64,000 nucleotides of DNA, from positions 211,939 to 275,938 of the forward strand of contig MNCI01002197.1 of NCBI GenBank assembly GCA_015680685.1, read 5' to 3'. Below are positions 5,411 through 52,179 of the stretch, piece after piece. Each line of letters starts with the position of its first letter. Within the stretch, counting starts at the first letter, position 1. This DNA is from Gnetum montanum. Taxonomy: Eukaryota; Plantae; Gnetophyta. The notes beneath the pieces are model-generated. The model ran no database searches and was not told where the DNA came from. It saw only the letters and a program-made list of their open reading frames with translations. A program made the position numbers and the translations under genes.

Positions 5411-6369
5411 GTCAGTTAACTGTTTTATGTGTTTGTTTGTGTCTCTTCATATGAATTCTGTTAGGGGAGATATTGAATTTTAGCGCCTGCGTAGGTAATG
5501 TATAGAATATGCACAGGGAATACGATTCCAAAAGAAAAATAATTGTCGTGGAGAAACGGCAATAGCATGATCTTGGCTGCCTTGCTGGACCAATCGATAT
5601 CTTTGTGAAACCATTGGCAAAATCAGAAGGCTCGATTAGTTTTGAAATAGTACCCAAAATGAGCCGCTCAATTCTATGTGTACGCAGAGAAGGACATGTT
5701 CTTTTAAGTTTTCCGCTGTGAAAATACATATAATGTGAAGAGTTCTGGGAAAATACATATCAACATGTGAAGAGCAATTGCTAATGTAGCAGTAGGAGAA
5801 ATATCAATATCATGATGTTGGTTGCCTCACTGTACCAAATATTGGTTAGGTCTATTCTGGGTACTTTGATGGTTATTGTATTGAACGAACTGGTAGGTTA
5901 ATTGGTAATTTATTGATTTATCAATAGCTTTGATAACTCAAGTGGTTAGGGCACCTTTTTAGTAAGCATAAGTCCATGAATTCAACTGTTATTTAGGCAG
6001 TGTCATACCCTAGTGGTTAAAGCAATCTGAATTTTATACGGAGGCGGAGAAGGTCATGCTTCCACAAAGATCCAACTTTCTCTAGTCAGTCCAAGCTATA
6101 TCGTGATTGTCCAATAGTCAGAATGGTTATGTTTGAGACGCTATGGTATTTCGTCGCAAATGGAGGGTTGCCACACAACAGTAAAGGTAGGCTTGTTTGC
6201 TCTTTACTTGCATGCATTATTATTTAGTTTGGAGTAATGTCAGGCCCGATCAACTTTCTAACAAGGGATAGGCTTACATTGAAGCCTTCATCCATGTCAT
6301 TTGATGTGTCCTTATTGTTCATGATGTCCTTGAAACTTTGTTTGTTTGGCTGTTTTATTTTATTTTTTT

Positions 6370-15300: not shown

Positions 15301-16559
15301 AAGGATCAAAAACTAATATATCTAATTATATCGATTTAGTGTTATAGACCCTTCAGATATGCCAAAAATCAATGATTTCATCTAGAGGAGTATGATTTGG
15401 AGAAGAAAGAGATCATAGTTTTGTTGTGATAAACAATGAATTAAATTTACAAGCCATCACTCTAATTTATAGAACGGACACCAACTAGCCAAAATCTTCA
15501 CTCAACAGAAACAAAAAACATTATGTTATAAATCAATACTCAAATAAGTCATAGTTTTGATTGATAATTCTTCTTCTAACTTGACATGTTTATCAAATAG
15601 AAGCATGGCGTGCAGGATTGCTCATGATAGGCATGAGAGATGTTATGGCCATGACACAACATAGGATTGCTCAGCATAGGCATAAGACATGTCATGGCCA
15701 TGACACAACATAGGATTACAGAAGTTGTGTTTATTTAGTTTTCTGTCTCAGCAATGTGCCCTTCCTTCAAGACTTGTAACCAACAAACAGAAGGCTGACA
15801 TGTTGCACCAAACATGTCCTAACATTCAACACTTTCAAGTGGAAGCTTTGAATAACTCAATAATTTCTTGACTTGTGCTCTTAGAACAAAAAACTAAACC
15901 ATAGACATGGAGGCTATTAAAAAGCATATTTTGTCAGTCATATTTTGTTATAGATGAGATTAACAAGCTTCTACTGGAAAATAAATTCAGTTGCATTTTA
16001 CTAGTTAGCCTGCCAGCTCTGCTATATTTTGTAATCCATCATTAAAGGCTGTTCCAAATCACAAGCAAGAAGGAAGACATCTGATTGCTAAAAATCAATT
16101 TTCTATCTGAGGCTTCCATGAAGACTTTAAAAATGTTGCAAATTGACATCCAATTTAGTGGGTCAACAAGGCTATTGAGGATATAAGCATATAATCTGTT
16201 TCAGAACTTTTTGCCTGTTTTTTTTTTTCTTTTTTTTGAGAGAATGTTCAGGATTGTATTACTAAAAATATAGTACAAGGAATTACAAAAAGTGGGTCAA
16301 TAGCGTTGGCCCATGTGGGGTGTGGTTACACCCCAAAATCAACATGCCAAACTGTGCATCAGACCGACCACACATCAGTCTTTTTCCCCAAGATGCTCAA
16401 AGTCGACAAACGACTGGGGGGGGGGAACCCAAACCCTGGGGGGGCAAACAAAGTCATTGGGCACTAGGGGGGGGGGGGGGGGTTGTTGGGCAAAAATTGC
16501 AACCCTGCCATGGGCTCATTGGTAGCCTATGGCAGGCATAGTGTAGCCGCTCCAGCGCA

Positions 16560-16765
16560 TGAAGGATGTCCAGTGTGTTATGGAGCTCTGTGTCCACAAA
16601 ACTGGCGGCTTGCTAGATTCCTTGCATGTCCGATTCTCGTTAGTTCCTATCCGCTGTCGACGTCTGCCCATTTGGGTGGAAACGTGTCGAGGTCTGACGG
16701 ATGTGGCGTTTGAGTTCTCCCCAAGTGCTATCACAGTTGATGCCAAGGATGAGGTATGGATACCG
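16560..16765 (-). pseudogene. DnaJ-type J-domain of copy A (HPN variant)
   Basis: RYPYLILGINCDSTWGELKRHIRQTSTRFHPN...MQGI*QAASFVD; HPN at 16670-16678. Confidence 0.75.
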
Positions 16766-19700
16766 TCCACCCCTTAGCCATTGGCGCGCACTATGCTCAT
16801 GTGCCCGGTCCACCTGGCTCTGCCTCTGTGTTTCCTCCTCTTGTTCTCGCTGGCGCTGGGCTCGTTCAGCCTCCTCGTGCTCCCTTCGGGCGGTTTCCTC
16901 CTGAAGTAACTCGTCTCTCACTTGGGCCCGGATCTCGTCCACTAGCCGGGCCCAGGTTGCATCAGCTAGGAGGGTTTGTTGTCTAACCCTCTCCTGCTCC
17001 CTTTCTCGGAACTGGGTTTCTAGCTTGGCCCGGGCCTGCGCAAGGGCTTCTTGTCACTTTGCCTCCCACTCTCGACGCTCAACCTCACATGCCGCGGCTA
17101 CAGCCTCTTGTACCGCTTGTTGCAGCTCCTCGTCCTTGCTTTTGTTGTGCCCCGAGGTTTCAGGTGGCAACGTCTCCAGCTTCGTTGTGGGGTTTGGGGG
17201 TCTTCGTCCTCGTTGGTTGCATCTTTTCTGCGTGTAGGTCACCATTGGTTGGGTCCAAAGGCTCTCCCGGCTGGCCTAAAGGGGTGAACCAAGCGGGGGG
17301 CCTCCTCGTGGGGGGGCAATCTACGACTTCGATGGGTTTTGCCCCCCGCTGCCCCCCGCTATAGGGCCAGGATGAGCCCTGAGTGACGGCCTCGCCTTTG
17401 CAGTTGTAGGGTTGTCAGAAAAAACTAGGGCAAGTTAACCCTACGTCTTAATTTAAGGCATTGGAGGAAGGCAAAGTGGATGCCCTGAAGTTTGGATTCA
17501 TTGCTAGACTAGACAAAATATCTATCCACGAAATCCACTGCTCGGGCCCAGATTTGGGGCAGGGAAGATTTGGGCACTTGTCTGCTCTGCGTGCGTGGCA
17601 CCGGCCCATCAAAGAACATTTGCGCATCTTGTAGCTTGTGTGCAGAGGGTAAGATGATTTCACCATCGGCTTGGGCCCCTAGACACCTAGCAATCAAAGC
17701 TTCTGTGACAATGACCTCTCTCCCCTGAAAATAGGTACGATCGTTGTGCCAGTTGGTGAAGAAATCGTCATCTAACAGGTCCGAGTCCCCAACTAGCTGT
17801 TGTAGGGCGCTGCTCCAGCCGCAATGTTCCACCAATTGCCAGAGTTCTTCCTCCTGGAACACGGCGTAGTTAGGTTCGTATGTTGGCATGACGCCCATCG
17901 CTGCCTCGATCTCTTTCCACGCACTTTGAGCCTAGGAAACCACCAGTCGGGGGGGGNAGACTGTGCGGTTTCTTGTCTTCCATGCTATCCATAAAAGTAG
18001 CGTGGCCTGAGAGCCACCGGTGAGGCGCATTGGGGGTGCCACCCCTGCAGAGTGCCACGTGGCTCGCATGTAGGCGTAGTTGGATGTGAAGTGTTATACC
18101 GTTTCGGGTGCAGCACCACACAAGGGACGTGTCGTCTATAATGAGGCCCCATCTACGCAAAACCGTGCGAATTGGCAGCACATCATGCCATATCAGCCCC
18201 AGGAACATTTTGATTTTCTCGGGGAGCCGCCCCCTCCAAATTTGTCACCAGCCCGGTGCCTGTGGGTACTTTGTTGTCATCAGGCAGTGCGATGCATGCC
18301 CCAACCACCTCTGTGTTTGCATTTCGTGCACGTGGTGGCAAAGCGTTTGCCAGGGTCTTGAGTCCTACGCCCCCGCCTCCCAACGATGATATTTTGCATT
18401 CATAATGCGGATCCACTGGGCTGGTTCCCTAAGCGGGCATGTAAATTGGAGTAACAGGCGCTGTTGTCCCATCATGAGCTTGTCTTTGAATTTGGATATG
18501 CCTAGCCCTCCCATGTTACGGGGGTGCGCGACCTAGTCCCAATTTACAAGGTGGATTTTGCCGCCCCCTCTGTCCCCCATCCAGACAAATCGCCGGATTT
18601 GCATGTTGAGTGTGTTAACAATGGCATTTGGAGGGTTGGCGACTACCGCAACAAACCGTGTTATCGTCGTAAAAATCCCCAATGCCACCACCAATTGCCC
18701 CTTTCTGGTCAGGAAACGATTGGCTTAGTGTCCCATCCTTCTTTCAACCTTCTCCAACAATGTACCCCAAGAAATGCTCCACCCCCACTCAAAGAGTGGG
18801 ATACCCAGGTAGGTGTCTTTGACTGTTCCGGGCAGAATGTTTAGGACCTGTACGACTTGGTTCTTAATCTAGGTATCCACATTGATAAAATGGGTTGTTG
18901 ACTTAGCCTTGTTAATATCTAGTCCCAGCTCGTCTACTAACTGAGACATGTGACGTTGATGCATTGTGCTTGTGGGACCCCCGCATGACTAAGCAACATT
19001 GTATCATCTGCATAGTGTTCAGCTCGACATTCCACCCCTGCAATGTCAAGGTTGTTAACCCCTGACCTCCTACAATAATGTTGCATCATATCCATAGTGA
19101 TAATGAACTGCAGGGGTGAGAGGGGGTCCCCCTACCATAATCCCCGCCTAGGTGAGGAAAGACCCCACAAGTGCCCCCCCACATCAAAGGAGAAACCTGC
19201 AGATGATTGCATGTGGATGGACAGCTGGACAAAACCCAGGTCAAACCCCTTTCGTTGCATAATGGCGGTCAGGGTTTCCCAGCTGATTGTATCATATGCC
19301 TTGGTGATGTCGAGTTTGAGACAGAGCCCTAGGAAACCCATTATTTGGAGAGAATGAAACACCTCCTGCATGAGAAGAACCTGGTCCTGCAGGGTTCGGC
19401 CTTGCACAAAACTTGTTTGGTTCACTCCCACTAACTTGGGCATTAGCAGCGCAAGCCTACGGACGATCAACTTGGAGAAAACCCGAATCAAAACATTGCA
19501 TACCTCGATAGGGCGAAAGTGTTTTGGACGGTGCACCTCCGTTTGCTTTGGGATGCACACTATTTGAGAACAATTGAGCTCCCTTCGGACCTGCCTCTTG
19601 GCCAGCATGAGGTTGAAAGTGTCCAGAATATTGGGTCCCACAATATCTAGGAAGGTCTTAAAGAATTCCAGGCTCCAACCATCTGGGCCAGATGCCTTCC

Positions 19701-22359
19701 CTCCTGGCATGTCGCTGATGGTTGCGATGAGTTCTTGCCATGTGAACGGGGTCAACAGCTGAGCGTTATCCTCCTCGTTTAGCTCCTATTGAATTTGGAC
19801 CGATATGGGCTTGGTAGGTCGTTTGGCCCAGATCCTCTCCCAGTACTGTGCCAGCTCCCGAGTGACGTTGTGGTTCATCAATTATCCCCCCCTTCATGGT
19901 GTGTAAACAACGTGGCTGGCTCCATCCTTGTGTCTTCGCGACGGCAAAGAAAAAGTTCGTTTGCCTATCCCCTTCTTGGAGCCATCTAATCCATGACCAT
20001 TGTTTCCAGTATGTCTCCTCTTCTAAGTCAAGGCCTTGAAGTTGTCGTAGAATGTTCTGCTCTTCTTCATGTAAGTTCTCCCCAGTCTCCTGTCTGGTCT
20101 AAATTTGAATTAGCCTATCCTGGAGCACCCTGTGGCCCGTTCTGAACAAGAATTTATCCTCCACTGGTAGGGCTCAGATAGCCCATTTCAGGTGAAGCAA
20201 ACCATCTTTGAGGAAGTCCCTGGGGTCTCCCTGGCCTGGCTGGTAGTTTGCCCAAATGTCCTCAACTAATGGCCTCAATCATGGTTTAGCCAACTAGGTT
20301 GCCTCAAATTGAAAAGGTTGCGGGGTCTGGGGCCTTTCAGGTCCGAGTGAACAAACCAGGGATCGATGGTCCAAGGCGACCCGTTCTTGCCCCGTAACCC
20401 GCACAGCCAAGCGGAGGAGGAGGTCGGAATTGATGCAGACTTGGTCAATTCTAGAGAGGATGCGGTCTAGACCTTTCCTCCTATTGCTCCAGGTGAATTG
20501 GCAGTTCTCAATGGGCAGGTCTACCAGTGAGTGGACCACCAGGAAATCCTGAAACTCTTGTGTGCCCAGAGGGGGGGCGTCCCCACTGGACTTCTCCCAC
20601 GGATGCAGTCTTTGATTGAAGTCCCCAACTATTAGCCATGCTAGGCGATCTTTTACTAGCACTGCTACACGTTCCATCTCCTATAGCCTCTGCTCCCATG
20701 TCTGCACCCCATAGAAGTTGGTCAGCCAAACCCCTTGGGATGGGATATGGACTGTCATGGTTGATTGTGAGGAGTCAACCAGCGTCATGTCGTAGTGGGC
20801 TAAGATAGCAAGACCGCTTGGTCGATCCACGCAAGGGTGCACGTGGGATTTTCAGCCATCCCAAAGGAGATGGTGTGATTCTGTCGCCTGTAGCTTGGTT
20901 TCTTGGAGGCATATGATGTCACAATCTTCATCACGGACAATTTGACTCATGGTATTTCTTTTATAGGGTGTACCCTGCCCCCTACAATTCCAACTGAAGA
21001 TCTTCATGTACGCCCAGATGAGCGACATTGGTAGACCTCCCGAAGGGTCTTCTGTAAACCCAAGTCAATGTTTCATTGAGCTTGTCTAGCCTTGGACAAG
21101 CTCTCACTTGGGCATCTGGGGCAGCTCTCCCCCTCCTGTACCACTGGGCTGTAGCCTGAGTCCTTGGATGTAGGCTCTTTCTCTGGGGGCTGATGGGACT
21201 TGGTGCTCCCCCTAACCACATTAACCCATTCGCCCAGGGGGGAGCACTATCCCTGGCATCGTTGGGTCAGCTGATGACAATGGTGGTGAGTTGTGGGGGG
21301 TGTTGGTGTCAGGGTTATGGGCTGGTTGTGGCGGGGTAGGTTAGAGGCGCAGTGGAGAGTGTCGCGGNNNNNNNNNNNGTGGGGAAGGGGTGGGGCGGTT
21401 GGTCTGGAGGGGGGTGCAGTCGGCCCTTACGGCCCACCGTGACCCAGTCCCCGCTCTCAACAAGCTGTCGGGCTTGGTTCCGCGGCCGCATTGGTCTGGC
21501 CCTCCAAACCTAGCAATCCTCCTCTTGGTGCCCGGGTTTCCCACACCATGCATAACCTTCTCCCCAGCCCTCTCGGGTCTTCGGTCTTCGTTCTAGGTCT
21601 GGCTCTGCCTCCAGGTTTTCAAACTCAACTTGGAGTTGTTCCTCCCCTCCTGGGAGTTCTAGCACTATTTCCCGAATCAGGTCCTTGGCCGATAGACTTC
21701 GTCACATGCAGAAATGGGTGAAACCCATGCGCGCCATCGACTGCGTGACTCTATCGAAAGTTATGAACTTCCCAAAGAACCCCGCCATCCGTTCCAGGAA
21801 CTCTAGGTTCCACATCTCCCATGGGATCCTGGACACCCTAATCCACATCGGGGCCCGGGCAAACGGGTCTGTCTCCCGGTGCACCCTGGGGCACCAAGGG
21901 GTTAAAGCTAGCCCTCGAGCATCGTAGAACCACGGTCCCCCCAGTAACACCATGTCCCGAGTTTGCTGGGACGGAAAAATGAATAGCAATAGATCCTCAG
22001 ACAAGCTCCGCACTTCCACTTGGCCCACTTTCCAGTTTTTATGTAGCCACCTATGGATGAGCTCCATCCGTGGGTGAGCACCCCTAGACACAAACCGGCC
22101 AATGAGGCTCCTTTTCATAGTGTGGACTCCCTCCCTCAGGGGGCCATTGACCCGGAGGCACATGGTGTGGTCGGCATGGGAGTGTGCCTCGATCTCCCCA
22201 TCGGGTACTCGCAATGCGTCCCCCCCTTGGTTCTGTTTCTCCTTGTTTCCCTATTGTTCACTGCCGTCTGAGAGTCTCAGGTTAGCGTGTTCCACTTCAG
22301 TGTCAGTTGGTTTACCTTTGGTCACCCCAGCGCTCACCTGAACCGTCGCTCTTGCGCTT

Positions 22360-22469
22360 GTCTCCACTCCTGCGTGCTCCTGTGCCGCCGCTCCTGTGTG
22401 CTCCTGTGTCTCCGCTCCTGTGTGCTCCTGTGTCTCCGCTCCTGTGTGCTCTTGTGTCTCTGCGCCCAT
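22360..22469 (-). repeat. 24-bp coding tandem repeat at the ORF1 N-terminus of copy A
   Basis: CTCCTGTGTGCTCCTGTGTCTCCG units encode (GAETQEHT) about four times. Confidence 0.85.
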
Positions 22470-23028
22470 CTCACCCTATAGTTTAGGCTTGTTTTGGTGA
22501 GTGATGATACATCACATCATGTGTTGCCTGGTTTTTATATATATTGAAATTTGATGCCATTTCATGTATAGCTTATTAGCTTGGATATTATCTATAGTTG
22601 TAGCAGTTCCCTAAAGAAAGAAGTGATGTCATGAGAACTCTTTTGCCCTATACTTTTTTGTTGTTGCCAAGCATACATTTTTCGGGTGCTATGGATAGCC
22701 TATCAAATCTAGGAAAATTTTAGAGGTTTCCTTTTCTGCTCCATTCATTGAAGGGTATTTTCCTTTGCATTTATGTCCTAGCAAACAAAAAACAAGAACT
22801 GCCATAAAAAGAAGGCATATCGTGAGAAAGTGAAATAATTCTATTTAGTGCGTAAATCTACCAAATTTGTGAATTTATAATACATTTGGAAGTAATATAC
22901 AAAACTCTTGAACTGTGGCTTAAATAGTTATTTAACAAATAGTTTATTGATTAAAATATATGTTCTATTACACCTTCATTTGTATTGCTTTTATGTTTTG
23001 AAAACTAATATTTTACAGATTTCTCTCC

Positions 23029-26000
23029 TTTTTTTCGTGAAAAGGTCAAGGATTAAATTAAGAGAAAGTAATTACAAAATTACACCATCTGGTGGGGGGT
23101 GGTGGAACTACAGGGGTTCAAAACCCCTCGAGGTGGGGGAGGAAAACCCTGACATTTGACAAAATGTAGAACATAGCAAACAAAACACTATCTCCCCTGT
23201 GGGATTGAAACAACCAAAAAATGGGGGCACTTGGTCCTAAAAACAAAACTGACCCATCATTCGGCTCTTCGTAGCATTACATTCGAAACCGTACCCTATG
23301 AAACCCAATGCCCTCATTGGGCAACCCCTCTTGGTCCTTGTGAAAAAAGTTATCTGGTAGATCTTGGCAGCTTGGTAGGGGCAAATAGCCTTTTCCTGGG
23401 CATGTATCATGTCCAGAACCACCTGGTAGTGTTTCGATGCAACAAATGCAATAGCCTTCTAAAATTCCTTGTATTTCTCCTCATGTTGTTGTTTGGTTGC
23501 TTCTATGGTGGCCTTATCTGGATGGAACTTAGTGGAAGTTGTCCTGATACATCTCCTTAGCCTAGCCCATGAGATGTTGCGATTTATGCCCATAACCATG
23601 TATGGGTATCTCCCTATGCAAAACCATTGCTGGGCATTGGCCTCATGTGTAGCCTCTTGATTTCTTTTAATTTGTTCCTCCTCTAGAAGGGCCCTAACTC
23701 GGTGTTCTTCCTCTTCCTCTTTTTGAAGCCATTCCTACTCTTCCTAGCGTAGATCCTCTTTGATTTGCTCTTGAAACTGCTCCTACATGGTGCTTCTAAG
23801 CACAACATCTTGCAACTCCTTTTGGCACCACTCCTCCACTGTTGTGTCTTTGAGTTGCCATTCTTTCTCTTGTCGCTTGGCCTTGACCTCCTCTTCATGT
23901 TGCTGCATCTTAGCTTCCTAGTGTGCCTGTTCCTCAGCCTTGACCTTAGTGATGGCCTTATGGAGGTCAGCCTCAAACTTACTTTGCAGCTCCCTACAAA
24001 TATGGTCTTTAGTGGTTTGGATTTGCTCCTGCAAAGATGGCGGCCGACCTGTGGTGGAGACCTACCAATCAAAGTCTTCCCCTAGCCCCACCAGTTCCAC
24101 TCTTTCCTCCAAAAAGGCCCTTGCAAAGGAAGATGACTCTCCCTCCTATGAGGGTTTGCATCTTATATATGTCATAGTGATAAACATGGGCTTTGTCGAT
24201 GGTGGTTTCACAGGCTGCGTTGCTTTCCATAGGCTAGAATTAGATTGGAGTGGCGTTCTCTTCTTCCCCATCGAAGCGATGCCAGGAAGAATTTTGGGAG
24301 GTTAGGTGGCTGGCCCATTTGCATGCAGCGGAGAAAGGCGAAGTGTGCCCCCTGAAGCTTCCACATGTTCTCCAATAGGATGAAAAATCATTCCACAAGC
24401 TCTACAATATCCTGCTAGAGAGGGGGCAAGGCCAACTTGGGGACTTGGATACTCTTGGTCTTTGGGGACCAGTTCGGGGAAGAAACTTTCAGTGTCTTGG
24501 AGCCCTTGCCCCGAGGGCAACGCCTCCTACTGTGCAGTTGAGAGATCGAGATAATCCACAATGTCCATCTTGTTAGCTAGATACAGACACCTCGAAAGGT
24601 AGTGGAATTCCCCCTCTAGTGTGAGAAGAATGAAGCATTAGTGAGATTTGGGTTGCTAGCAAGATGGGGAAGAACGTCTTCCCATCCCATCTGCACCACT
24701 AACCCCCATAGTGGCTGGTTGGCCTTGAAGCTTTAATAATCTAGCTCAAAGGTAGGTGTAACCCCCATGGTAGCTGTGGTCTCTTGTTAGAGTCTGGAAG
24801 CACAAAGAGTAATATTTGCAGGTGATGGTAAGGGCACGACTTGAAAGACGTGTTCGTTCCTAGCCCGCCAAAGCATCAAAGCAAAATCTAGAGGATTGCT
24901 TTGGCAGGAGAATCCCCATGCAACTATTTCATGATCCCCAAGGTTGCCCAAATCGTTTTGGAGAATGGGCAAAGAAACACAAAATGGTGGATGGTTTCAA
25001 TAACATTGTGGTAGACACGTGTTGTTTATAAGGAGGCCATGCTCTTGGAGCAGTTTTTGTATTGGCAGAACCCCTTGGCTGATTAACCATAAGAAGCATT
25101 TAATTTTCTTGGGCAGGCGGCCTTTCCAAATATCCTTCCCTCAAGCCATGGAGTATTTACTCTTCATAATTTCCCACGGTTGAGCTTCCAGCAGTCCCAT
25201 CTAAGCTAGCTATTGGGCAACTGCATAGATACTTTGCCAGAGGCGGGAGTCCTAAGGATTAGCCTACCATGGAGTATATTTTCTTCTAAGGATTGTTGCC
25301 TAGTGTCTCCCTGCCTTGTCACACAGGAAGCGGTTGATGAGGAATTGGTATCCCATGAGAACATCCTGGAACCCCATCACTCCCAGGCCCTCGAAGTGTT
25401 TAGGCCACACCACTTGTTCCTAGTAGACCAGGTGCATTTAGTCTCCTCCCTTTCCTCCAGGTGAAATGAAGTTGTGGACAATCTAGTCAATTTTGGCGGT
25501 GACTCCTTTGGGAGGGGTAGCAACTGAAGCTGTGTACCTTCCTATCACCAATAGGATAGATGAAGCCAGGAGTATTCTCCTCTTCTTGGTTAGGAATCTA
25601 GAGGTCTAGTGTTGCACTTTGGTTTGTATTCTTTGTATTACACTAGTTTAGGTATTCTTGCGATGCCATGCAAACATGGGCACTCCTAGGTATGCATCCT
25701 GCAAGATCCCCAAGGTCCTGCATATCCATCCTGTTACTACTATGTTGGTGTAGAAGAAATGGGCCATGGACTTTCCCCATTTGATAGTGAGCTCAATCTC
25801 TTTGGACATTCTCTGGAGGGCTATGGATATCGCTTCTGCCTATGGAACCACCGCCAGTGTGACAAGAATCATATCATTTGCATAGTGCTTAGTGATACAC
25901 ATGATCCCCTCAATGTTCAGACCTCGGATGCCTTTAGCTCTATAATATGTATACATAGTGTTAATTGCGATGATAAATAGGTATGAAGATAGGGTGTCCC

Positions 26001-27630
26001 CTTGGCCTAAACCTCGGCATGGGGAGGAGAATCCCCATAGTTGTTCGTTAATATCAAGAGTAGGCCCTTGTTGCCTGGATGTTAATGCATAGATCAACAA
26101 ACTTTGGATGGAGCCCTTTTCTCAACAGAATGTCCTTAAGTGAACCCCAATAGACTGTATCATACACCTTAGTGATATCAAGCTTAAAACACATACCTGG
26201 GAAGTTCACTTATTTTTTTTGTATAGAGTGCATTATCTCTTGCAGTAATAAAATTTGATCCTGAATATACCTGCCCCTGATAAATCCGGTTTGTCGGAAG
26301 CCCATTAGAGATGGCATGAGCAGTTGTAGTTTGGCAACAAGTATCTTTGTGAACAACCTAAGTAGCATTTTACAAACCCCTATTGGTCTGAAGTGAGCTG
26401 GTTTAGTGGGGTTGGTAATTTTTGGTTTCAGTACAATTTTGGAACAATTTATTTCATGCCTAGTCCCCATTTGAGCATAAGATTGAAAGCATCAGCAATG
26501 TTGTCGTTGAGGATGTTGAAGAAGTTTCTGAAAAATTCCACTAGCCACCCATCCAGCCTCAAAAAGCTCTTGCTTGGTGATTGGTGTCAGAAGCCTTTCA
26601 TTTTCATGAGGTTGGATAGCCATGTTAATGCAGATGGAACTAGGGGAGGGATCTCCCCTAGACCAAGTGCCAGATCAGTGTTGTTGCATAGCATTGGTGA
26701 TGGCTTGGTTATCATGCACTGTGTTTGCTCCCTGCGTGATGCTATGGATTCTTTTGGCTTCTTTGTTCACCTTAGCTGCAGAAAAAAAGAACTTAGTATT
26801 TCTATCTCCCTCACTATTTCATCTGTGCTCATGCCTTTCAGTACTGCTCTTCTTCCTTCAAGAGTTGCTATAGTTGGAGAAGGATATCATGCTTTTACTC
26901 ATCCAAGGACTATCCTAGCTCTTGATTGGTGTGGATGTCAAGTAATCATTCTTTCAAGCCAGCTCGATATTCTTTAAAAGTGTACTTATCTCCCTTCTGC
27001 TATTTCCGTACCTTCTTTTTTAGGATATTCAGTCCTGCTTTAAGGAAATCCCTAGGGTTTGTCTCTGCTGGGTACCCTTTCCAGATTTCTGAAAGAAGGT
27101 GGGCTAGCCAAGGTTTGTTTAGCCATGACCTTTCTAGTTTGAAAGGTCTTGTACCCAACTTTCCAGGCATATGGATGGAGCAAAGAAGCACCCTATGGGC
27201 AGAGGCCTTTCTTTCAAGCCCACCGACATGGATCTCATGGGTGAGGATTCATGCCGAATTGGACCAAACTCTGTCAATCTTAGACATTACTCGCTCCCCA
27301 CCTTTTCTTCTGTTACTTCAGGTGTACCGGCATCGTTTAACCTCCACATCCACCAATTCAAAAATTTGGAGGTAATGCATAGATTCTTGATTGGTTGGAG
27401 GTGGGGTTGAGTCTCCCCCAGTCTTTTCCCATGGAAAAAGCAGCTGATTGAAATCCCTAATCAGGATCCAAGTCATTCTATTACAGATCTTACCCGCAAT
27501 CCTGTGTAGCTTTGTCAGTCTGGCTTCTGGCCCTTGTAGCCCGTAGAAGTTTGTTAGCCATGGTCTCTGCGAGGGCATGAAGGTAGTGATGCTCCACTGG
27601 GTTGAGTCCAGTAGTTGCATTGGAATCTGT
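23029..27630 (-). mobile_element. L1-clade LINE, J-domain family, copy B (5'-truncated inside the endonuclease; diverged subfamily)
   Basis: Endonuclease WLTNFYG...DFNQ; RT FRPIGVC, QDQILLLQE, KHYAND; zf-RVT near 24950-25130; extension from 24790 to about 23350; short poly(A) as T-run 23029-23035. Confidence 0.9.
23420..23615 (-). pseudogene. DnaJ-type J-domain of copy B
   Basis: RYPYMVMGINRNISWARLRRCIRTTSTKFHPDKATIEATKQQHEEKYKEF*KAIAFV; HPDK at 23513-23524. Confidence 0.85.
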
Positions 27631-27827
27631 TGCTTATAGGCTGGTTGCTTTATTCTTTACAGGGTGTACTTCTAAATGGATTTCTTTTCCCTTATTGGAA
27701 GGTTATTTATGCTCATAGAAAATCTTTTTATCTGTTTTAAAAAAATACTGTAAATCTGTGAATTCATGTATCTTTTTGATAGAGCACAGTTTTTAATGAG
27801 GTACATGATGGTCACTACCTTATGCAG

Positions 27828-29469: not shown

Positions 29470-32400
29470 TTTTTCTCGGTACTTAAAGATCGACTTGCAG
29501 CAGCCGGATGGCGAGTGCAGGAGCGGTGACTTAGGCAAGCCGAGGGGCGAACAAGGGTAAACCAGTCGACACTAGAGTAGGACCTGCAAACCCAGGGCTT
29601 GCTGTGGGACACACGGGCGGCGATGAACAGAAGGAAAGCGGGAAGGACCCGGTTAGGGCCAAACAGGACCACGAGGGGGACGCAGACCAAGCACCAAATG
29701 GGGAGATTGAGGCACACTCTCATATCGACAACACCATGCACCTCTAGGTTAGTGGACCCCCGATGGAGGGAGTTCGGACTATGCAATGGAGCCTCATTGG
29801 CCGTTTCGTGTCCTTGGGCGCTTGCTCGCAGATGGAGTTAATTTGCAGGTGGGTACAAGAAACCTAGAAGATTGGACAAGTGGAGGTCTAGAGCCTATCC
29901 GAGGAGTTGTTATTGTTCATTTTTCCGACCCAGCAGGCTAGGGACATGGTGTTGCTGGGGGGACCATGGTTCTATGGTGCTTGGGGGCTGGCTTTAACCT
30001 GTTGGCGACCGGGGGTGCACCGTGAGATGGACCTGTTTGCTCAGGCCTCAGTGTGGATGAGGGTGTTCGGGATTCCATGGGAGATGTGGAACTTGGAATT
30101 CCTGGAATGGATGGTGGGGTTTTTTGGGGAGTTCATCTCTTTCGATAGGGTCATGCAGTCAATGGCGCATATGGGATTCACCCGTTTCTATGTGTGGCAA
30201 AATCTGTTTGCTAAGGACCTCACCTGGGAAATAGTGTTGGAGCTCCTAGGAGGGGAGGAACACCTTCAGGTTGAGTTTGAAAACCTGGAGGCAGAGCCAG
30301 ACATGGAATGGGGACCGTAGGCTCGAGAGGGCAAGGGAGGAGGTTGTGGGTGCTGTGGGAAACCTGGTCACCATGAGGTTGATTGTCGGTTTCGGAGGGT
30401 TCGGCCAATGCAAGCGCGGGACCAGTCCGACGGTTGGTTGAGGGCAGGGACTGGGTTACGATGGGACGTAAGGGCCGACCGAACCTGCCACCAGATCAAC
30501 TACCCCCCCATAAACCACCACCTCCCTCTCGCCCCCCAACCCCCATGAACACAATCCCCACCCCCACGTCNTCTCCATTGCAACTTTCACCTACGCCCCC
30601 ACAATCGACCTACACCCCTGACACCAACACCCCACACACCTCACCACCATCATCAGCTGACCCAACGACGCTAGGGATAGTGCTCCCCCCAGGGCAAATG
30701 GGTCAATGTGGTTAGGGGGAGCACCACGTCTCGTCAGCTCCCGGGGAAGGAGCCTGCATTTGGAGACTCAGGATGTAGCCTGGTTGTGCGGGAGGGGGGG
30801 AGCTCCAAACACCCATGTGAGAGTCTCTCTAGGGCCAAACGAGCTCAACGGAATATTGATTTGGGATTACAGAAGACCCTCTGGGAGGTCTAACAACACC
30901 GCTCATCCGGGCATACATGAAGATCCTCAGCTGGAATTGTAGGGGACAAGGTACACCCTGTAAAAGAAATACCCTGAGAAGAATTGTTCGTGATGAAGAG
31001 TGCAATATCGTATGCCTCCAAGAGACCAAGTTGTAGGCAATAGAATCACACCATCTCTTCTGGGATGGCTGGAAAGTCCACGTGCACCCTTGTGTGGGTC
31101 GAGCAGGGGGTCTTGCTATCCTAGACCACTACGACATGATGTTGGTTGACTCCTCACAATGGACCATGATAGTCCATATCCCCTCTCGAGGGATTTGGCT
31201 GACCAACTTCTATGGGGCGTAGATATGGGAGCAGAGGTTGCAGGAGATGGAGCACGTGGCAACGCTGGTGTAGGACCGCTTCGTATGGCTAATTGTTGAG
31301 GACTTCAACCAAAGATTACATTCGTGGGAAAAATTAGGTGGGGAGCTTTGCACCCCCCCCCCCCCGGAGCACCCAGGAGTTTTAAGATTTCCTGGCGATC
31401 CACCCGCTAATGGATCTGCCCATTGAGAACTGCCAATTCACTTGGAGCAATAGGTGGAAAGGCCATGATCGCGTCCTTTCTAGAATTTGACCGGATTTGC
31501 ATCAATTTCGACCTCCTCCTTCGGTTGGCCGTGCGGGTTACGGGACAACAACGGGTGGCATCAGATCATCGATCCTTGGTTTGTTTGCTTGGACCTGAAA
31601 GGTACTAGACCCCGCAACTGTTTCATTTTGAGGCAACTTGGTTGTCCAAGCCGTGGTTGAGGCCATTAGTTGAGGACATATGGGCAAACTACAGGCCAGG
31701 CCGGGGAGACCCTAAGAACTTCCTCAAAGATGGCTTGCTTCGTTTGAAATGGGCTATTCGAGCCTTGTTGGTGGAGGACAAGTTCTCGTTCAGGATGGGT
31801 CGCACGGTGCTTCGGGATAAGCTAACTCAGATCTAGACCAGACAAGAGGCTGGGGAGGACCTACATGAAGAGGAGCATAACATTTTGCGGCAACTTAGGG
31901 CCTTGACTTAGAGGAGGAGACATACTGGAAACAAAGATCATAGGTTAGATGGCTTTGGGAGGGGGATAGGCAAATAGACTTTTTCTTCATCATTGCCAAG
32001 ACACAGGGATGGAGCCAACCACATTGTTTGCACACCATGGAGGTGGGGATAACTGATGAGCCACAGAGCGTCGCTAGGGAGCTGACACAATATAGGGGGA
32101 AGATCTGGGCCAAGCGACCCACCAAGCCCATACCGGTCCAAATTACGCAGGTGCTAAATGAAGGGGATAATGCTCGATTGTTGACTCCATTCTCATGGTA
32201 GGAACTCGTAGCAACCATCAGCAACATGTTGGGCGGGAAGGCACCTGGGCCAGATGGTTGGAGCCTTGAATTTTTTAGGGCCTTCCTAGATATTGTGGGA
32301 CCCAACATTCTAGATGCATTCAACCTTATGCTAGCCAAGAGGCAGGTTCGAAGGGAGCTCAGTTGTTCTCGAATAGTTTGCATCCCCAAGCAAGCGGAGG

Positions 32401-33885
32401 TGCACCGCCCAGAACACTTTTGCCCTATCGGGGTTTGCAACGTGTTGATTTGGGTATTCTCCAAGATGATTGTTTGTAGGCTAGTGCCGCTAATGCCCAA
32501 ACTAGTGGGAGTGAACCAAATAGGTTTTGTACAAGGTAGGACCTTGCAGGACCAAGTGCTTCTCATGCACGAGGTGTTTCATTCTCTTCGAATTACGAGT
32601 TTCCTAGGGCTCTGTCTCAAGCTTGATGTCACCAAGGCATATGATACGCTCAGCTGGGAAGCCCTGACCACCATCATGCAATGAAAAGGTTTTGACCTGG
32701 GTTTTATCTAGCTTTGCATCCACATGCAAGCATCTGCAGGTTTCTCCTTTGACGTTGGGGGCGGTGGGGTCTCTCCTCACCTGGGAGGGGGTTGCGGTAG
32801 GGGGACCCCCTATCACCCCTACTCTTCATTATTGTTATGGATCTGATGCAACATTATTGTAGGATGTTGGGGGTTGACGACTTAGAAATTGCGGAGGTGG
32901 AATGTCAGGCTGAACATGATGCGGATGACACAATGTTGCTTAGTCGTGTAGGGGTTCCACAAGCACGGTGCATCAATGTGGCACTTTCACGGTTAGCAGA
33001 CGAGATGGGACTGGAGATTAACAGGGCTAAGTCAACAACTCATTTTATCAATGTGGACACACAGATTAAGAATCGAGTCGTACAAGTCTTGAACATTCCG
33101 CCTGGGACAGTTAGAGATACCTACTTGGATATCCCACTTTTTTAGCGGGGGCGGAGCATGTCTTGGGGAATGCCATTGGAAAAGGTTGAAAGACGGATGG
33201 GACACTGGGTCAATCATTTCCTAACTAGAAAGGGGTGATTGGTGGTGGCGTTGGGGATGCTCATTGTAATAACTTGGTTTGTGGTTGTAGTCGCCACCCC
33301 TCCAAATGCCATTATCAACAAACTCAACATGCAAATTTGACAGTTTGTCTGGTTGGGGGGGCAGGGGGGGGGGGTGGCTGGGCATTTCCAAGTTTGAAGA
33401 TGAGCTGACGATGGGACGACATCGTCTGTTACTCTGGTTCACAAGCTAGCTTGGGGAGCCAGCCCAGTGGATCCGAGTAATGAATGCAAAATATAGACGA
33501 TGGGAGGCGGGGGCGCAAGACTCAAAGCCCTAGCAGATGCTTTGCGGCCACGTGCGCGAAATGCAAGTGCAAGGGTGGTTGGCTCTTGAGCTGCGCCACC
33601 TAATGGCGGCCAGGTACCTGCCGGTACCAGGCTGGCAACAAATCTGGAAGGGGTGGCTGCCCGAGAAAATTAAAGTGTTCCTGTGGTTAATTTGGAATGA
33701 TGCGCTGCCTGTTTGGGCGCTCCTACATAGACGAGGCCTCATTTTAGATGATACTTGTCCTTTGTGTGGTGCCATGCCTGAGACCGTGCAACACTTCATT
33801 TTCGAATGCACCTACATGCGCTCCACGTGGCGTTTTGTAGGGGCAGCCCCCTCGATGCGCCTCAGAGGCCACTAACTTGGGCATG
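29470..33885 (+). mobile_element. L1-clade LINE, same family, copy C (ORF1 and ORF2 up to zf-RVT; 3' part missing)
   Basis: Close to copy A. ORF1 has GGPWFYG and CGCCGKPGHHEVDC. ORF2 starts at ATG 30917 (MKILSWNCRG), RT at 32226-33145, zf-RVT CPLCGAMPETVQHF at 33537-33875. Breaks off near 33885. Confidence 0.9.
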
Positions 33886-42245: not shown

Positions 42246-42735
42246 GAAGTGCACCAAGTGTATAAGAAGTAATAGAAAAGTCTACCAAGAACACAATATT
42301 TATTTAGAAAAGTCCTAGTTTGTGTATGAAAAGAATGGAATAAAGGTTTGAGAAATTTTATAAAAATATGATATTTTCCAAAATATCCAAGTGCCAATTC
42401 TAGTAAGAAACACTAAGACATTACTAACATACAAGTCAAAAAGCTTAAATAAGACATTAACAAAAAGAGGCTAGTTGTTAGAATATACTCAAAAGAAAAC
42501 TCACAATTAACAAGAAGGCAAGTTTTAATAAAAGGCTATTAACGGTCTCACAATTAATTGAGCACAAATGCTAAGAAGGTCATGAGATCATATCCTTCAA
42601 AATACATAAACCAACTAAAGATTAATAAGAGACAATTAAAAATAGACCAGTGGTTAGGATGATGAGGTATTACAATAATAACACCAAATCATTATAAAAT
42701 GATAAATATAAAGAATGTTAAAGATAAAGTACCAA

Positions 42736-43244
42736 GTGCTTCCTGCTCTTGGCTGAAGCTGCTAGGGCTCGCCTCATTGACGAAATCAAGGCCCAAGTGC
42801 GGGAAGAATTAACCCAAGAGGAGGAGGCCCAGAGACGACGTGAGCAAGAAGAGCAGGCGGAGTAGGAACGGCTTCAGGAGGAGGAGGACCAGCGGCAGAG
42901 ACAACTTGACCGTGCCCACAGGCATAACGCCCAACAATGGCTAAGAGAGGGACGTTGCCCGTACCTCATTCTTGGCATCAGCTGCGAGAGCTCCTGGGCG
43001 GAACTCCACCGATATATCCATCGAACCTCGACGCGCTACCACCCGGATGCAGGAGCTTCGCAGGCGGACAGGAGTAGACGGGAGTCCACCATGCAGGGCA
43101 TCCAGCATGCGGCCAGTTTCGTGGACACAGAGGATCATTGGAACACTCTGGATATCCTCCACGAGCTGGAGCGCCCCAACTATGCTTGCCGTCGGTTGCC
43201 GACGAACCCTTAGTGGTTGGCCCTCTGCTGGGTTGATGCCAACT

Positions 43245-43276
<32 letters not shown>

Positions 43277-43488
43277 CCCTATGCTATCTCTGGGGGGTTG
43301 CCCCCCTCATCCCTAGGTGCACCCCCCTTGTTGTTTTTGCTATGTTGGGTGTAGCCATTGCGTAATTTGGGGATCATCCCCGCTCGGAGGGGCCATTCCT
43401 GATGGCCCACCGCTCGTAATCTCTTGTAACATTTTTTGAGTTTTTCATTAATATAATCCTGACTACTTTCTCAAAAAAAAAAAAAAAA
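42736..43488 (+). mobile_element. L1-clade LINE, J-domain family, copy E (5'-truncated: coiled coil, J-domain, 3' UTR, poly(A))
   Basis: TSD AAAGATAAAGTACCAA at 42720-42735 and 43486-43501; poly(A) 43473-43488. Encodes GRCPYLILGISCESSWAELHRYIHRTSTRYHPD with HPD at 43040-43048; stop at 43211-43213. Confidence 0.93.
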
Positions 43489-43825
43489 GATAAAGTACCA
43501 AAATAATGAAAAATGATAAAAATAATGTATGTTATAGATAAATAAAAGATGCAAGACACTTTACTAAGCATACTATGTCAAGTTTGAATTGCAAAATTGA
43601 CACAAGGGGTAAAAACAAAATCTTACCCTAGGGATTTTACACTTAAACAACTATTTTTAAAGGGTGATCATAAGCACCTACAATTTTATTGGATAAAATC
43701 CATTTGGAACGAATTGTTTTGAACTTTAGAACTATTATTCGCATCTAGAACTCTTATTCAATGTGGTTTATATTCCATCATCATAAATATCTAATGAATG
43801 AGGTCTTAGCAAGGTTAAAACCCTT

Positions 43826-43920
43826 AGTACAGCTTAGTGGTTAAAGCCTTAGTATAGAAACCTTAGGTTATAGGATCCGTTCCAGTGGGCAACACTAAGT
43901 TATAAATTTAAAAAAAGAAA
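43826..43920 (+). repeat. Degenerate tRNA-derived SINE-like element
   Basis: A-box-like CAGCTTAGTGGTTAAAG, weak B-box and A-rich tail. The body CTAAGTTATAAA is shared with a similar element at 3661-3742. Confidence 0.4.
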
Positions 43921-43937
43921 ATAGATCTAAGAAGCTC

Positions 43938-46900
43938 AATCTCAACAATCTCCCACTTGAGGATGGTGAGCATGGGAGTCAGAGTTGGGGTTGGAGNATG
44001 GAGGTATTGAGGCATGCTCCCGCGAGAACGGCGTGATGAGGCTGAGGGTTAGTTGACCTCCTGGCGAGGGGGTTCGGACCATGGAGCGTAGCCTAATCAG
44101 ATGTTTTGTTTCAACTAGGGCTTGGCGTAGGTTGGACCTTATCCGCAAGTGGATGGTGGAGGTTTGGGGGATGGAGGTGCATAGTCTATTGGACGAACTG
44201 TTATTGTTCATCTTTAAGAGTATGGAGGACAGGGATGCGGTCCTTTGGGGTGGGCCATGGTTCTACGGTGCCAGGGGGCTGGCGCTTACACATTGGCAAC
44301 CAAGGGCTCACTAGGAGCCAAAACTGTTCTCTCAAGCGCCACTCTGGATGCACATTTCTAGGATTCCTTGGGAAATGTGGATTTTGGAGTTTCTGTGGAA
44401 GATAGCTAGTTTATTTGGGAAGTTCATCTCCTTTGATAAATTACATTGTCGATGGAGTGCATGGGCTTCGCTCAATTCTATGTTTGGCGGGCCTTGTCAT
44501 CCAAGGACCTGGTCAAGGAGGTGGTGTTTGAATTGTCGGGGGCGACAAATGGCTTTGGGCAGAATTTGAAAACTTGGAGGAGCAGTTGACAGAGATAATC
44601 ACGGTGACCTAGAAGGGTTGCTCCCTGTGTGGGAAAAATGACCATCACAAGGTTGAGTGTCATTTTTAGGGGCCAAGACGGCGGTAGGCCAAGGCTCTTG
44701 CATGTCGCCTGGAGCTGGGTCCTCAAGGCGGAGAATGGACTTTGGTGGGGTGGCAAGGGTAGGTGCTGGCTCTGCCTACTGGCTCTTGTGTGCCCCAAGT
44801 GGCACCATCTTCTGTCATGCCCACTAAACCAAGGGTTGAGCTCCCCCCACTAGGGGAATGGGTTAACGTGGTTTAGGGGAGCTCTAAGCCATGGATGCCG
44901 ATTTTGACTCCTCTGCCTATGGAAGATTCTGGTAGTTTTCTGGCATCATCGAAGGGGGGTAGGTTGGGCCACCCATTTGGTTTGCTATTGCAGGACAAAC
45001 AGACGAGGAGTATCGACTTGGGAATACAATAGACCTTGAAAGAGGTCTACCAGTGACGATCCACCAGTAAAGCATGAAGATCCTTTCATGGAACTATAGG
45101 GGATAGAGTACACCCTATAAAAGAAATACCCTGTAGGAGATTGTGTGAAGTGAGGAATGTGACATTGTTTGCCTGCAGGAAACTAAGATGCAGGCTTCAA
45201 AAACATTCCACCTGCAATGGGTGGGTTGGAATCTCCACCTAAGGCCATGTCAAGGGCATGCAGGGGGTTTGGCCATCTTGGCTCGCCCTAAGGTTTTGAT
45301 GATTGATTCGTCACAATGGAGGATTATCGTCTACGTACCGTCCCAAAGCCTTTGGTTGATGAATTTTTATGGGGCCCAAACTTGGGAGCTTCGGTTGCAC
45401 GAGCTAGAGAGGGTGGCAATGTTGATCCCAAATCAGTAGGCCTAGCTTATTGTGGGTGATTTCAATCAACAACTTTACCCCTGGAAAAAGTTAGGAATGG
45501 ACTATACTAGTCCTCTAGGAACTCAGGAATTTCAGAACTTTTTGGTGTCGCACTCGCTAGTTGACTTGGAGATTGTGAATTGTCAATTTACATGGAGTAA
45601 CAGGCATAGGGGGACCGAATGGGTTCTCTCTAGGATCAATCGGGTTTGGGTCAGTTTGGAGCTTCTATTACAGTTGGAGGTGCGAGTTTCTGGTAAAGAG
45701 CTGCAGGCTTTTTGTCACCAGTCGATCCTTTGCTGCCTAGTGACTTCTTGGAAACGGTTGCCTTGATCCTTTAGGTTTGAAGTTTCATGGCTGCTCAAGC
45801 CATGGCTGCGCCCTTTGGTGGAAGAAATCTAAGCAAATTATTGGGGGGATAGGGGGGATCCCAGGAACTTTTTGCGGGATGGCCTCCTCCACCTAAAGTG
45901 GGCTATCCAATCACAAGCTATGCAGGATAAATTTTTGTTTCGTTTTGGCTATAGGGACCTTTAGTCCCGGCTGAGCTCGATTAGGCTCGGTAAGAATTGG
46001 GAGAGGACTTGCAAGACGAAGAAGCAGGGGTCTTGAAGCAACTACAAGGATTGGACCTAGAAGGGGAAACTTACTGGCGGCAGAGGTTGTGAGTCAGATG
46101 GCTTAGGGAAGGCAATCGGAGGATGAGATTTTTCTTTGCAGCTGCTAAATCTAGAGGATCGAACCAACACCCCCTTAGTATGATGGTTGACGGATCCCTA
46201 GTGGATGATCTTGAAAAGGTGGCTCAGTTGCTGGCTGACTATTGGGGCACAATTTGGGCAAAGCAAACTATGTCATCGATCTCTATGCAGGTCCCACAGG
46301 TCTTGGATTTAGAGGACAATGCTCGGTTGCTAGGTCCATTCACCTTGTAGAAGTTAAAGATGGCCATTGGATCCATGCTAGGCGGTAAAGCGTCGGGGCT
46401 AGATGGTTGGAATGTTAAATTCTTTAAGGAGTTTATTGATATTGTGGGGCCTAATGTTCTCAATGCTTTCAACTTGATGTTGGCTAAACGCTAGGTACAT
46501 TGAGACATTAATTGCTCTAGAATTGTTTGCATCCCCAAGCGGGCCGACCTGTCCTCCCTTACTCATTATAGACCCATTGGGTCTATAATGTTTTGATCAG
46601 AATCTTCTCTAAGATGATCATTGGTCGGTTGGTCCCCATCATGCCAAATGTTGTTGGTGATAACCAAATGGGGTTTGTTCATGGGCGTTTCTTGCAGGAC
46701 CAAGTGATACTTATGCAAGAAATTCTGCAGTCCCTGTGAATCTTGAAATTCCCTGGATTGTGTCTAAAACTGGACATTATGAAGACTTATACTATTGTCA
46801 ATTGGGAGGTGCTCACTAACATTATGCTATAGAAAGGCTTTGATCCTACCTTCGTGCACCTGTGCATCCAAATGCAGGAATCGACTACTTTCTCCTTTGA

Positions 46901-49896: not shown

Positions 49897-52179
49897 AGAT
49901 CCAAGAAGCTCTCAGTGGATGCAAGCAAAAATTAAGTTTCAGTTTCGTAGTATTTGGAAACATGCTAGAGCTTGATAGTAGTAGAATGTCTTTCAACTTC
50001 CTGTGTCATCAACAACAGAAGGGTTAGATCTTAGGTCCTGTGCATTGGGATCTTCCAGTGCTACAACTGAAAAGGATGCAGGGGAAATCCTCTTACTAAG
50101 AAGGGTAGAGCTTATGCCCGTAAATTGAGGTCACCTTTGGGCTTTTATCACAAAAGCTTTATGTGGAGAAGTAATATGCATGCCTGAATCGTTGCTAAAT
50201 GAAAGAATTTTGGACAAACTTTTACCATTCCTTCCTGTACACCAAACTTCTCAAGCCTAGCATGCTCTTAACACTCTCTTCTCTCCGTTTGGCTTGATGA
50301 TGCACCTCATCTAGTGGTTTGGTAATCCTTGCTGCTACCACTTCTCGCTGAGCACCTGTCACAAGTCTGATGATCCTTCAGCTTTTGAGAATTTTTCATA
50401 ATTGCATCCTCTTAATGGTAGATCCAATATTTCTAGTTTGAGGCACACGTATCTAAATCTTCATCATCTGTATCCATTTTGCAATGGCAATATAAGTACA
50501 ATGGGTTGTTCCTTCATAACACTTCAAGAATTTCTAATGCATTATTCATTTGGAGAGGGTTAAACAAATTTAACCTCGGTTAACAGAGCATTGTGCGCTT
50601 GAATCGACTGGTAGAACTGGGAAGGGGAAAATCATACTATAAAGATAGCCTGTTTCACAACACATCAACATGAGCTCTATATCTCTTAAGAAATAAAGGT
50701 GAGCAGTGATTGCATTGTTGTTCTATATCATTTTGAATGGGTGCCTTAAGGCAGGATTTGAATAAGGGATTTTAGAGGAATGAATTTCATGAACATCTGT
50801 CCTTGCTGCAATTAGGAGAGTGAAAGAAGAAATTATATTTTTCTGCATTTTCAAATCAGAGTAGATTTGGGAGCGAGTCAAATTGGTTTTGGCTTTGTTT
50901 TGTTGTTTTTTGTTTTGGTTTTTCATTCTTTGGAAAAAACTTGGTTTTGCTTGAAACTGTAGTGGATTTAGCCAGCTAATGGGACTAAGATGGTAGTGAT
51001 AAACTTGAAAAGGTTGGCTACAATTTTTGGGGAGAGTCTTAACATGGAAACCGTAGGTTACAGGTTCAATTGTAATAGGCACTGTTGAGTTATAGATAAA
51101 TTCTATGAAAGGAATTCTGAAACTGATAGGGTCTGACAGATTCAAGGTGGTCTTAGTGGACATGCTTAAGTGCATTCAGTTTTAGTTTCATTATTGCAGA
51201 GTATTTTGGACAAAGTATGGAGGGAGCTTAATGGTAGGATTTTTTAGTTGAAAATTGAAACTGCATTATCAGTGTGGCTTGTAATTCTACAATAATGGAA
51301 TGATTCAGTGAAGATCAGAAAAGATTTCAGGTAGATGAATAATGTTGCTTAGTGCATATTCTGCTAGGACTTTTATTTAAATTTTGTGATGTACTGTTAA
51401 ATGTTAACATAGTTGATCACCATAAACATTTGCTTGTGTCAGTAATCTTTTACTGTCATTGTAATAATTAATATCTTGAACTGAAAATTTACATTTGGTT
51501 ATTGCTATCTGGGTATTTAATCATGTAACTTATCTCTGTTTACTATTTTTCTGAGTGTTTTTGCTGGAGCATGTGCGGAGTAGAATGGATTGAAAACTGA
51601 TACGTAGAGCATGCCTGAAAATGCAACCCATGTTTCTCTAGAAATTGTTGTACAAAATGAGGGTATGGAATGCACTGGAAGGACTTCAATTATATAACTA
51701 CAATGTAACCACACATAACTGACTGTAAAACACACGTCCAAAACAGCATTACATCACCCAACAATCATGGTTTTTAGCCAACAAGGATTACACGTCCAAA
51801 AATTTATTTATTAGAAGTTTTTATTTTTCATTTTTCAAAACAAGGATTTCATGGAAAACGTTTTTATTCCTCGAGACATTATCTATTGGACAGAATAAGC
51901 TTTACTAATGTAGTCTCTGTGTTGGTATACACCATTAAGGCTGAAAACAAACTCTACATTGTTGGGTTGATGGTTGGGATTTATCATCATCTTGGTGCCT
52001 TTATATCATCTATGATGGGTAGATCATTGGGTTGATGGTTGAGACTCTCATCATCATCAACTTGGTAGCTTTATGGTCGGGACTTTCGTCATCATCAACA
52101 TCTTGGTGTTCACTGACTGTCTACCGGAGGCCAGAGTTACCGAGCATATATTTTTACAGTGTCCCTTGTCTCAGCATAC

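Follow-up and report, generated by a model that had tools for sequence, protein, structure and literature searches.

The 64,000-nt window analysed here (Gnetum montanum contig MNCI01002197.1, positions 211,939 to 275,938 of the forward strand) is plant-like eukaryotic DNA of ~35% G+C with G+C-rich islands. Self-comparison and translation place one group of long interspersed nuclear elements (LINEs) in it, in five pieces, A to E. The group has the features of plant L1-clade LINEs: a first open reading frame (ORF1) with DUF4283, an ORF2 with endonuclease, reverse transcriptase (RT) and zf-RVT in that order, and poly(A) tails with target-site duplications, without long terminal repeats (LTRs). 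Directly behind zf-RVT, in the slot taken by RNase H in other plant L1s, copies A, B and D carry a module of ~490 codons. It is made up of a first domain of no named family, a coiled-coil region and a J-like domain. Copy A (16209..22536, − strand) is a decayed, near full-length L1, delimited by its Pfam domains and a weak target-site duplication of 15 nt at 16209/22522 with 2 mismatches. Copy B (23040..27700, −) is a distant, 5′-truncated L1 with the same module and no convincing target-site duplication. Copy C (29500..33870, +) is 78–80% like A and ends upstream of the terminal W..RN motif of ORF2, so it does not include the junction. Copy D (43918..49911, +) contains ORF1, ORF2, module and poly(A) within a 20-nt duplication with 2 mismatches, and copy E (42720..43501, +) is a 5′-truncated 3′ end with coiled coil, J-like domain and poly(A) within an exact 16-nt duplication. 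Whole-element DNA identity is 0.80 for A–C, 0.58 for A–D and 0.48 for A–B, and ORF1 homologous to that of copy A is present in C and D. Copy C halts at 33870 just ahead of the W..RN motif, with neither poly(A) nor module; its 3′ loss is likely a deletion or a later insertion.

Copy A reads on the − strand as follows. The DUF4283 part of ORF1 lies at 21705..22250 (PF14111, E 8.7e-25), and the start of ORF2 with the endonuclease at 20700..21007 (PF03372, E 2.6e-10). The longest open piece of the RT is 19135..19785 (PF00078, E 3e-12); it is 27–35% identical to its 9 matches, and those named by organism are flowering plants. The zf-RVT and the terminal W..RN motif occupy 17959..18244 (PF13966, E 2.7e-5, against E 1.7e-16 in copy D), and this part has a private 2-nt loss at 18128, where relatives are 2 nt longer. 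The first domain of the module, ~180 amino acids starting with MGV, is assigned to 17359..17898 by homology to B and D. It is followed at 16784..17358 by a linker and a helical, coiled-coil-like region, recognized by its E/R/Q-rich composition and in a net −1 frame relative to the preceding domain. The J-like domain and the end of the frame lie at 16454..16783 (a sub-threshold PF00226 match), and the poly(A) tail, read from the sequence, at 16218..16237. From the ORF2 start at 21007 to the TAG described below there are ~1024 codons, and from this TAG to the last stop 493. The end of ORF1 overlaps the start of ORF2 in a different frame in A (20980–21010) and C (30890–30930), and copy D has the same ORF2 start (45070–45110). 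At 22290–22400, close to the 5′ terminus of copy A, a 24-nt unit is repeated in tandem and can be read in the ORF1 frame as a series of ETQEHTGA units.

The module is coding DNA of the element and has evolved under purifying selection. In copy D it lies between zf-RVT and poly(A), inside the target-site duplications, and therefore moves with the element. In tblastn comparisons, the first domain of A is 45% identical in amino acids to that of D and 35% to that of B, and the coiled coil with J-like part of A shares 50% identity with D, 66% with E and 34% with B. The E values for the module (3e-37 for A–D, 9e-31 for A–B and 3e-50 for A–E) show a similarity that far exceeds chance. The ratio of nonsynonymous to synonymous substitution (dN/dS, Nei–Gojobori) is 0.21 for A–D (118 codons), 0.16 for A–B (70 codons) and 0.07 for A–E (139 codons), compared with 0.18, 0.07 and 0.09 for RT plus zf-RVT as control; pairing codons through a protein alignment biases dN downwards, and the controls were handled identically. 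Three other module pairs are saturated at synonymous sites, with proportions of synonymous and nonsynonymous differences of 0.85–0.87 and 0.30–0.41. An earlier preliminary description, made from the sequence alone, had placed extra domains in the RNase H position, and this is supported.

The same description called the first domain a transposon domain, a name for which we obtain no Pfam match at E ≤ 10 with the domain of A, the read-through domain of D or the pieces of B, including PF20167 (Transposase_32), PF03078 (ATHILA ORF1) and PMD. The domain may resemble Transposase_32 and the accessory ORFs of Athila elements, a likeness that this Pfam search did not confirm. The profile of the domain has no sequence match in PDB and its fold search was empty. 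The last domain is probably a true J domain. An HPD motif follows helix II in B (23524), D (49326) and E, and reads HPN in A. PF00226 scores are 23.6 bits for B, 22.3 for E and 16.8 for A, all under the Pfam gathering score of 27.8, and D has no match; the copies are decayed. Compared with PDB, 38 of the 39 matches of the J-like profile at E ≤ 1 are of DnaJ, Hsp40, Sec63 or Sis1 type (best E 0.0023). The helix order of the structure model fits a J domain; the best fold-search match has Z 4.2 and no J domain is among the matches listed, but the predicted confidence (pLDDT) is 46.6 for this model and for that of the first domain, too weak for fold searching. In copy B the frame continues at 23240–23400 for ~50 codons beyond the position of the D/E stop behind the J-like domain, and this extension contains several cysteines.

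The junction between ORF2 and the module was compared in the three copies that contain it. Copy A reads in one frame as written, with W..RN at 17982, a single N at 17957, TAG at 17934–17932, a conserved W at 17919 and ATG at 17898. The spacer between TAG and ATG (17899..17931, 33 nt or 11 codons) carries a conserved W-x-E-[IT] motif, and similarity reaches 8 codons 5′ of the Met. In copy B, W..RN is at 24870, TAA at 24789–24787 and ATG at 24768, with no further stop between; the TAA occupies the codon that is W in A and D. In copy D a W..RN-like motif is at 48062, TAG at 48121–48123 and GTG at 48148 in place of ATG, with one net frameshift. The distance from the conserved W to the G of MGV is 24 nt in all three copies, while that from the W of W..RN to the conserved W is 63 nt in A (counting N as one), 81 in B and 65 in D. 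The difference between A and B is due to the N site, where B is 18 nt longer. The N replaces ~19 bases: loose ends of aligned pieces beside 17958 show relatives with ~19 letters there (5 contigs of sequencing run X8, agreement 0.97; reads of run X13 are similar), and these letters encode roughly F-Q-Q-H-R-L-H-P. Single N letters also occur at 30571 and 43997, and in this assembly they may stand for gaps of unspecified length. With the N filled, the W-to-W distance of A-like copies would be 81 nt as in B, provided that their C run has the length that it has in copy A. Because the N conceals ~19 bases, copy A by itself is no proof of frame; across the filled gap, ORF2 and MGV are probably in one frame in A-like copies. 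If they are out of frame, the module is separate regardless. The motifs and frames that had been described for A, B and D are thus confirmed on the sequence, as are the similarity upstream of the Met and the position of the B stop on a conserved Trp. The in-frame extension of ~490 amino acids proposed there holds for B and probably, across the filled N, for A, while D needs one net frameshift.

Relatives of copy A in public sequencing runs reveal which stops are shared. Nine public runs contain part of the stretch, none of the listed holders being an RNA run, and contigs of four DNA runs were aligned at 80% likeness. The aligned pieces number 1336–3024 per run, so the family is high-copy. As a control for stops due to decay, 40 of the 237 majority differences from copy A were examined. 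Three stops of copy A are reversed in relatives in all 4 runs, at 17360 in 99–100% of the depth, at 17054 in 97–100% and at 16615 in 85–93%. The difference at 16642 only changes TAA to TGA, and the stops at 17511 and 17427 lie outside the 40 differences. The junction TAG behaves differently. A narrow alignment of 17860–18050, covering all 29 differences that reach at least 25%, has no differing letter at this level in the TAG, with a summed depth of 294 in run X5 and 176 in X8, and none in the ATG (17896–17898). Twelve of 16 listed pieces cross the TAG without a gap; since 11 of these differ from copy A at 9–14 other letters, they represent paralogues rather than copy A. The junction TAG is therefore the majority state of the A-like group, here the A-like pieces of X5 and X8, two runs labelled as two other organisms. 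The preliminary description was literally correct that the stops of A, B and D fall at different places, but decay does not follow from this for the stop of A, which its relatives share and which is likely the end of ORF2. Over 16400–18300, copy A differs from its relatives mainly by G-to-A and C-to-T losses, the mark of methylated DNA.

We tentatively favour a separate ORF3, with a probability of roughly 0.45: the shared UAG ends ORF2 11 codons before the AUG, and the module is made by ribosomes that restart there. Under this reading, full-length RNA would yield ORF1 protein, an ORF2 protein that ends at the stop and presumably comprises endonuclease, RT, zf-RVT and the W..RN motif, and little ORF3 protein. 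The latter would arise by restart at the AUG 33 nt past the stop, much as mammalian L1 is proposed, in passages of PMC5972666, to restart from ORF1 to ORF2 across a 63-nt spacer. ORF3 protein would be an accessory protein that need not be tied to the RT, and Hsp70 drawn in by its J-like end would either remodel the L1 particle or work on silencing complexes. Capture of the module probably took place in frame, directly after the terminal helix of ORF2, which would account for the W-x-E ahead of the Met. The start codon lies in a strong context, with G at −3 and G at +4 in A and A at −3 and G at +4 in B. An in-frame stop precedes the Met or Val in all three copies, by 11 codons in A, 6 in B and 8 in D. 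With stop rates from the copies themselves (11/952 codons in A, 11/523 in B and 8/479 in D), a 12-codon stretch contains a stop with probability 0.13, 0.23 and 0.18, jointly 0.005 and for B and D alone 0.04, although the 12-codon window was picked post hoc and the rates, taken partly from open stretches, are slightly low. One conclusion is firm under every reading: because A-like copies have multiplied while carrying the stop, their spread does not depend on a constitutive tether of the module to the RT.

Several further observations weigh against restart at a separate ORF3. The depth at the stop is ~35% of the peak 20–30 nt downstream (294/847 and 176/483), the remainder being clipped; the absence of any listed difference at 17924–17975 may reflect an aligner that keeps A-like pieces, and several minor letters, each below 25%, could sum. 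Ribosomes that restart behind a second long ORF would yield hardly any protein, and copy D starts with GTG rather than ATG. Apart from the stop on its W codon, copy B has no interruption of the frame between W..RN and MGV. The W lies 27 codons beyond W..RN in B, and would do so in A-like copies too, given a C run like that of copy A. In two RNase H-bearing L1s (P0011, P0012) a W lies 29 codons past the W..RN motif, so that the W here may belong to ORF2. The ORF2 tail of copy B has no significant BLASTP match to P0011 (E 0.13), and the homology of this W is thus a matter of spacing only. The open frame of B, the equal spacing, the W-x-E-[IT] kept 8 codons before the Met and the missing ATG of D all speak for a constitutive fusion, in which a single ORF2 protein of ~1500 amino acids includes the module, the UAG is a founder mutation that still multiplied and the stops of B and D are decay. 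C-terminal additions to ORF2 are known, such as RNase H in Ta11 L1 and a viral helicase in R1 LINEs (described in parts of PMC5348765 and PMC4686597), and TAG would arise easily from CAG or TGG through decay of methylated C. We regard such a fusion as rather unlikely, because UAG prevails among the relatives in runs with two different organism labels, the stops of B and D near the start have the low joint chance given above, and TAA is 1 of the 11 other stops in B; even if the fusion were true, A-like copies multiplied without the tether. The stop-free ORF2 protein of ~1500 amino acids put forward in the preliminary description is weakened. The outcome named there as refuting, a conserved stop between zf-RVT and MGV, is seen for A-like relatives in two DNA runs, with about two-thirds of the depth ending before the stop, and B and D also have an in-frame stop close upstream of their Met or Val. 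The fallback given there, a separate ORF3 starting at MGV, fits best when set against fusion or read-through, and the module is more likely separate.

Two other explanations accept the stop as part of the element. In programmed read-through, most ribosomes would halt at the UAG and a few would continue, giving the usual ORF2 protein plus a rare long form that holds an Hsp70-recruiting J domain on a coiled-coil arm. This would reconcile the shared stop with the kept frame and the conserved residues between stop and Met, and if true, the RT would bring its own chaperone adaptor. The six bases after the UAG do not match the read-through signal CARYYA. Both the stop codon and its position vary among A, B and D. 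When the decayed single copies were folded, the RNA past the stop showed no stable structure in A or in D (z 0.18, 0.50 and 1.55), and z is −1.81 in B. A precedent exists in SIRE1, whose pol and env-like ORFs are parted by one stop codon (passages of PMC2829016). On balance we consider a leaky, conserved stop unlikely. The other explanation is a spliced sub-genomic RNA in which the AG of the junction is the splice acceptor for ORF3. TAG-GCT is read in phase 0 ahead of the W in both A and D, and in A a short pyrimidine run precedes it. Most plant introns are unlike the upstream DNA, which has ~50% G+C. No RNA joint occurs at the junction in 100 reads of X13 and 2 of X10, at very low depth, and 3 reads are unspliced across 17930–17956; all RNA reads are less than 95% alike and come from both strands, so they are uninformative on copy A itself. 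Although spliced env-like RNAs have been described for plant LTR elements (parts of PMC2829016 and PMC7264820), we judge splicing here highly improbable.

A second frame break may lie between the first domain and the J-like part, independent of the ORF2 junction. The step from the ILA motif to the J-like domain is 590 nt in A, 611 in B and 545 in D, a −1 offset in all three copies. If this offset is conserved, the coiled coil with J-like part would be reached by frameshifting or translated as a fourth ORF. Among the relatives, contig 5 spans 16976–17386 with the same net length as A, contig 7 is gap-free over 17151–17357, and no insertion reaches 40% over the break. However, contigs 11 and 27 are +1 relative to A over 17190–17470, and a net −1 is common through decay, being seen in 12, 27 and 36 of 48 overlapping 580-nt windows of ORF2 in A, C and D. 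Even a certain loss, the 2 nt at 18128, is visible in just 12–56% of the depth. Copy B allows the shift to sit at the W of ILA(L)W. We therefore find a conserved second break doubtful. The one-base deletion that had been proposed at this W in B is arithmetically sound and brings W229 to the J-like domain into one frame, with 7 stops in it. ATGA start-stop overlaps in the linker were discarded as after-the-fact patterns.

Other features of the window lie outside these LINEs. A decayed Ty3/gypsy-type LTR element occupies 35623–42243 on the − strand, with repeats at 35623–36366 and 41388–42243 from self-comparison, and RT (38549–39049), integrase zinc finger (37365–37730) and SH3 (36505–36894) domains from Pfam. 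A Pfam Auto_anti-p27 match (E 4.8e-11) at 5031–5480 on the + strand is a likely host exon, and the LINE copies may sit in or near a gene with long introns.

Searches for relatives elsewhere gave little. No longer protein with a fused module was found at E ≤ 0.01 among 170 candidates for the first domain, nor among 7988 candidates for the J-region profile, both being weak evidence. Four phmmer matches among 1.84 billion representative proteins are repeat proteins and were judged spurious. Pattern matches in viral contigs (46 and 30) and in a first scan of metagenome contigs (171) were not confirmed, and two short matches in bacterial genomes were treated as chance. A second metagenome scan with at least 581 matches led to one locus, L001, which is a usual L1 and lacks the module. 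In the open-access literature, a scope that leaves aside the 2014 plant LINE survey and Repbase, we found no report of a J domain or of such an ORF3 in a LINE. The passages of PMC6338049, and the parts of the main text and two supplements of PMC5203782 that were consulted, do not mention DnaJ.

L1 is described with two long ORFs, and plant additions behind the RT are mainly RNase H. The element described here is likely a new plant L1 variant whose accessory ORF has been under selection and is more likely to be separate from ORF2 than fused to it. With a selected third ORF that includes a J-like domain, a high-copy plant L1 would supply its own Hsp70 adaptor, and it makes two questions testable, the expression of a third protein from LINE RNA and the use of the J-domain/Hsp70 arm of plant silencing by a transposon. 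The closest known systems include the Ta11-type L1 (P0011, P0012; passages of PMC5348765), which shares the DUF4283 ORF1, the endonuclease, RT and zf-RVT, the poly(A) and target-site duplications, and extra coding DNA behind the cysteine motif. In Ta11-type L1 this slot holds RNase H (Pfam RVT_3), whereas here it holds the unnamed domain, coiled coil and J-like domain, separated by a stop in A-like copies, and the pieces of A, B and D that follow zf-RVT have no RVT_3 match at E ≤ 10. Insect R1/TRAS LINEs likewise carry a foreign domain, a viral superfamily 1 (SF1) helicase, far behind the RT on a long spacer (parts of PMC4686597), but it is fused to ORF2 and both clade and domain are different. 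In SIRE1, a Sirevirus, one stop parts the RT gene from an in-frame accessory ORF downstream (passages of PMC2829016). However, SIRE1 is an LTR element in which read-through is demonstrated, while no CARYYA-type context is present here. The accessory ORF of Athila elements (Transposase_32) is of similar size, with 487 amino acids in ORF(+) of sunflower Athila 14 (passages of PMC11728184 and PMC7264820); the module here is LINE-borne, has a J-like end and lacks the Pfam matches named above. With J-domain co-chaperones (DnaJ, Hsp40), the last domain shares the Y-x-x-L-G start, the order of helix, HPD and helix, and profile matches to solved J domains; it differs in its sub-threshold Pfam score and in being encoded by a transposon, and its Hsp70 partner is putative. 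In plants, a J domain and Hsp70 have been linked to transposon silencing through SILENZIO, as presented in passages of PMC8616336.

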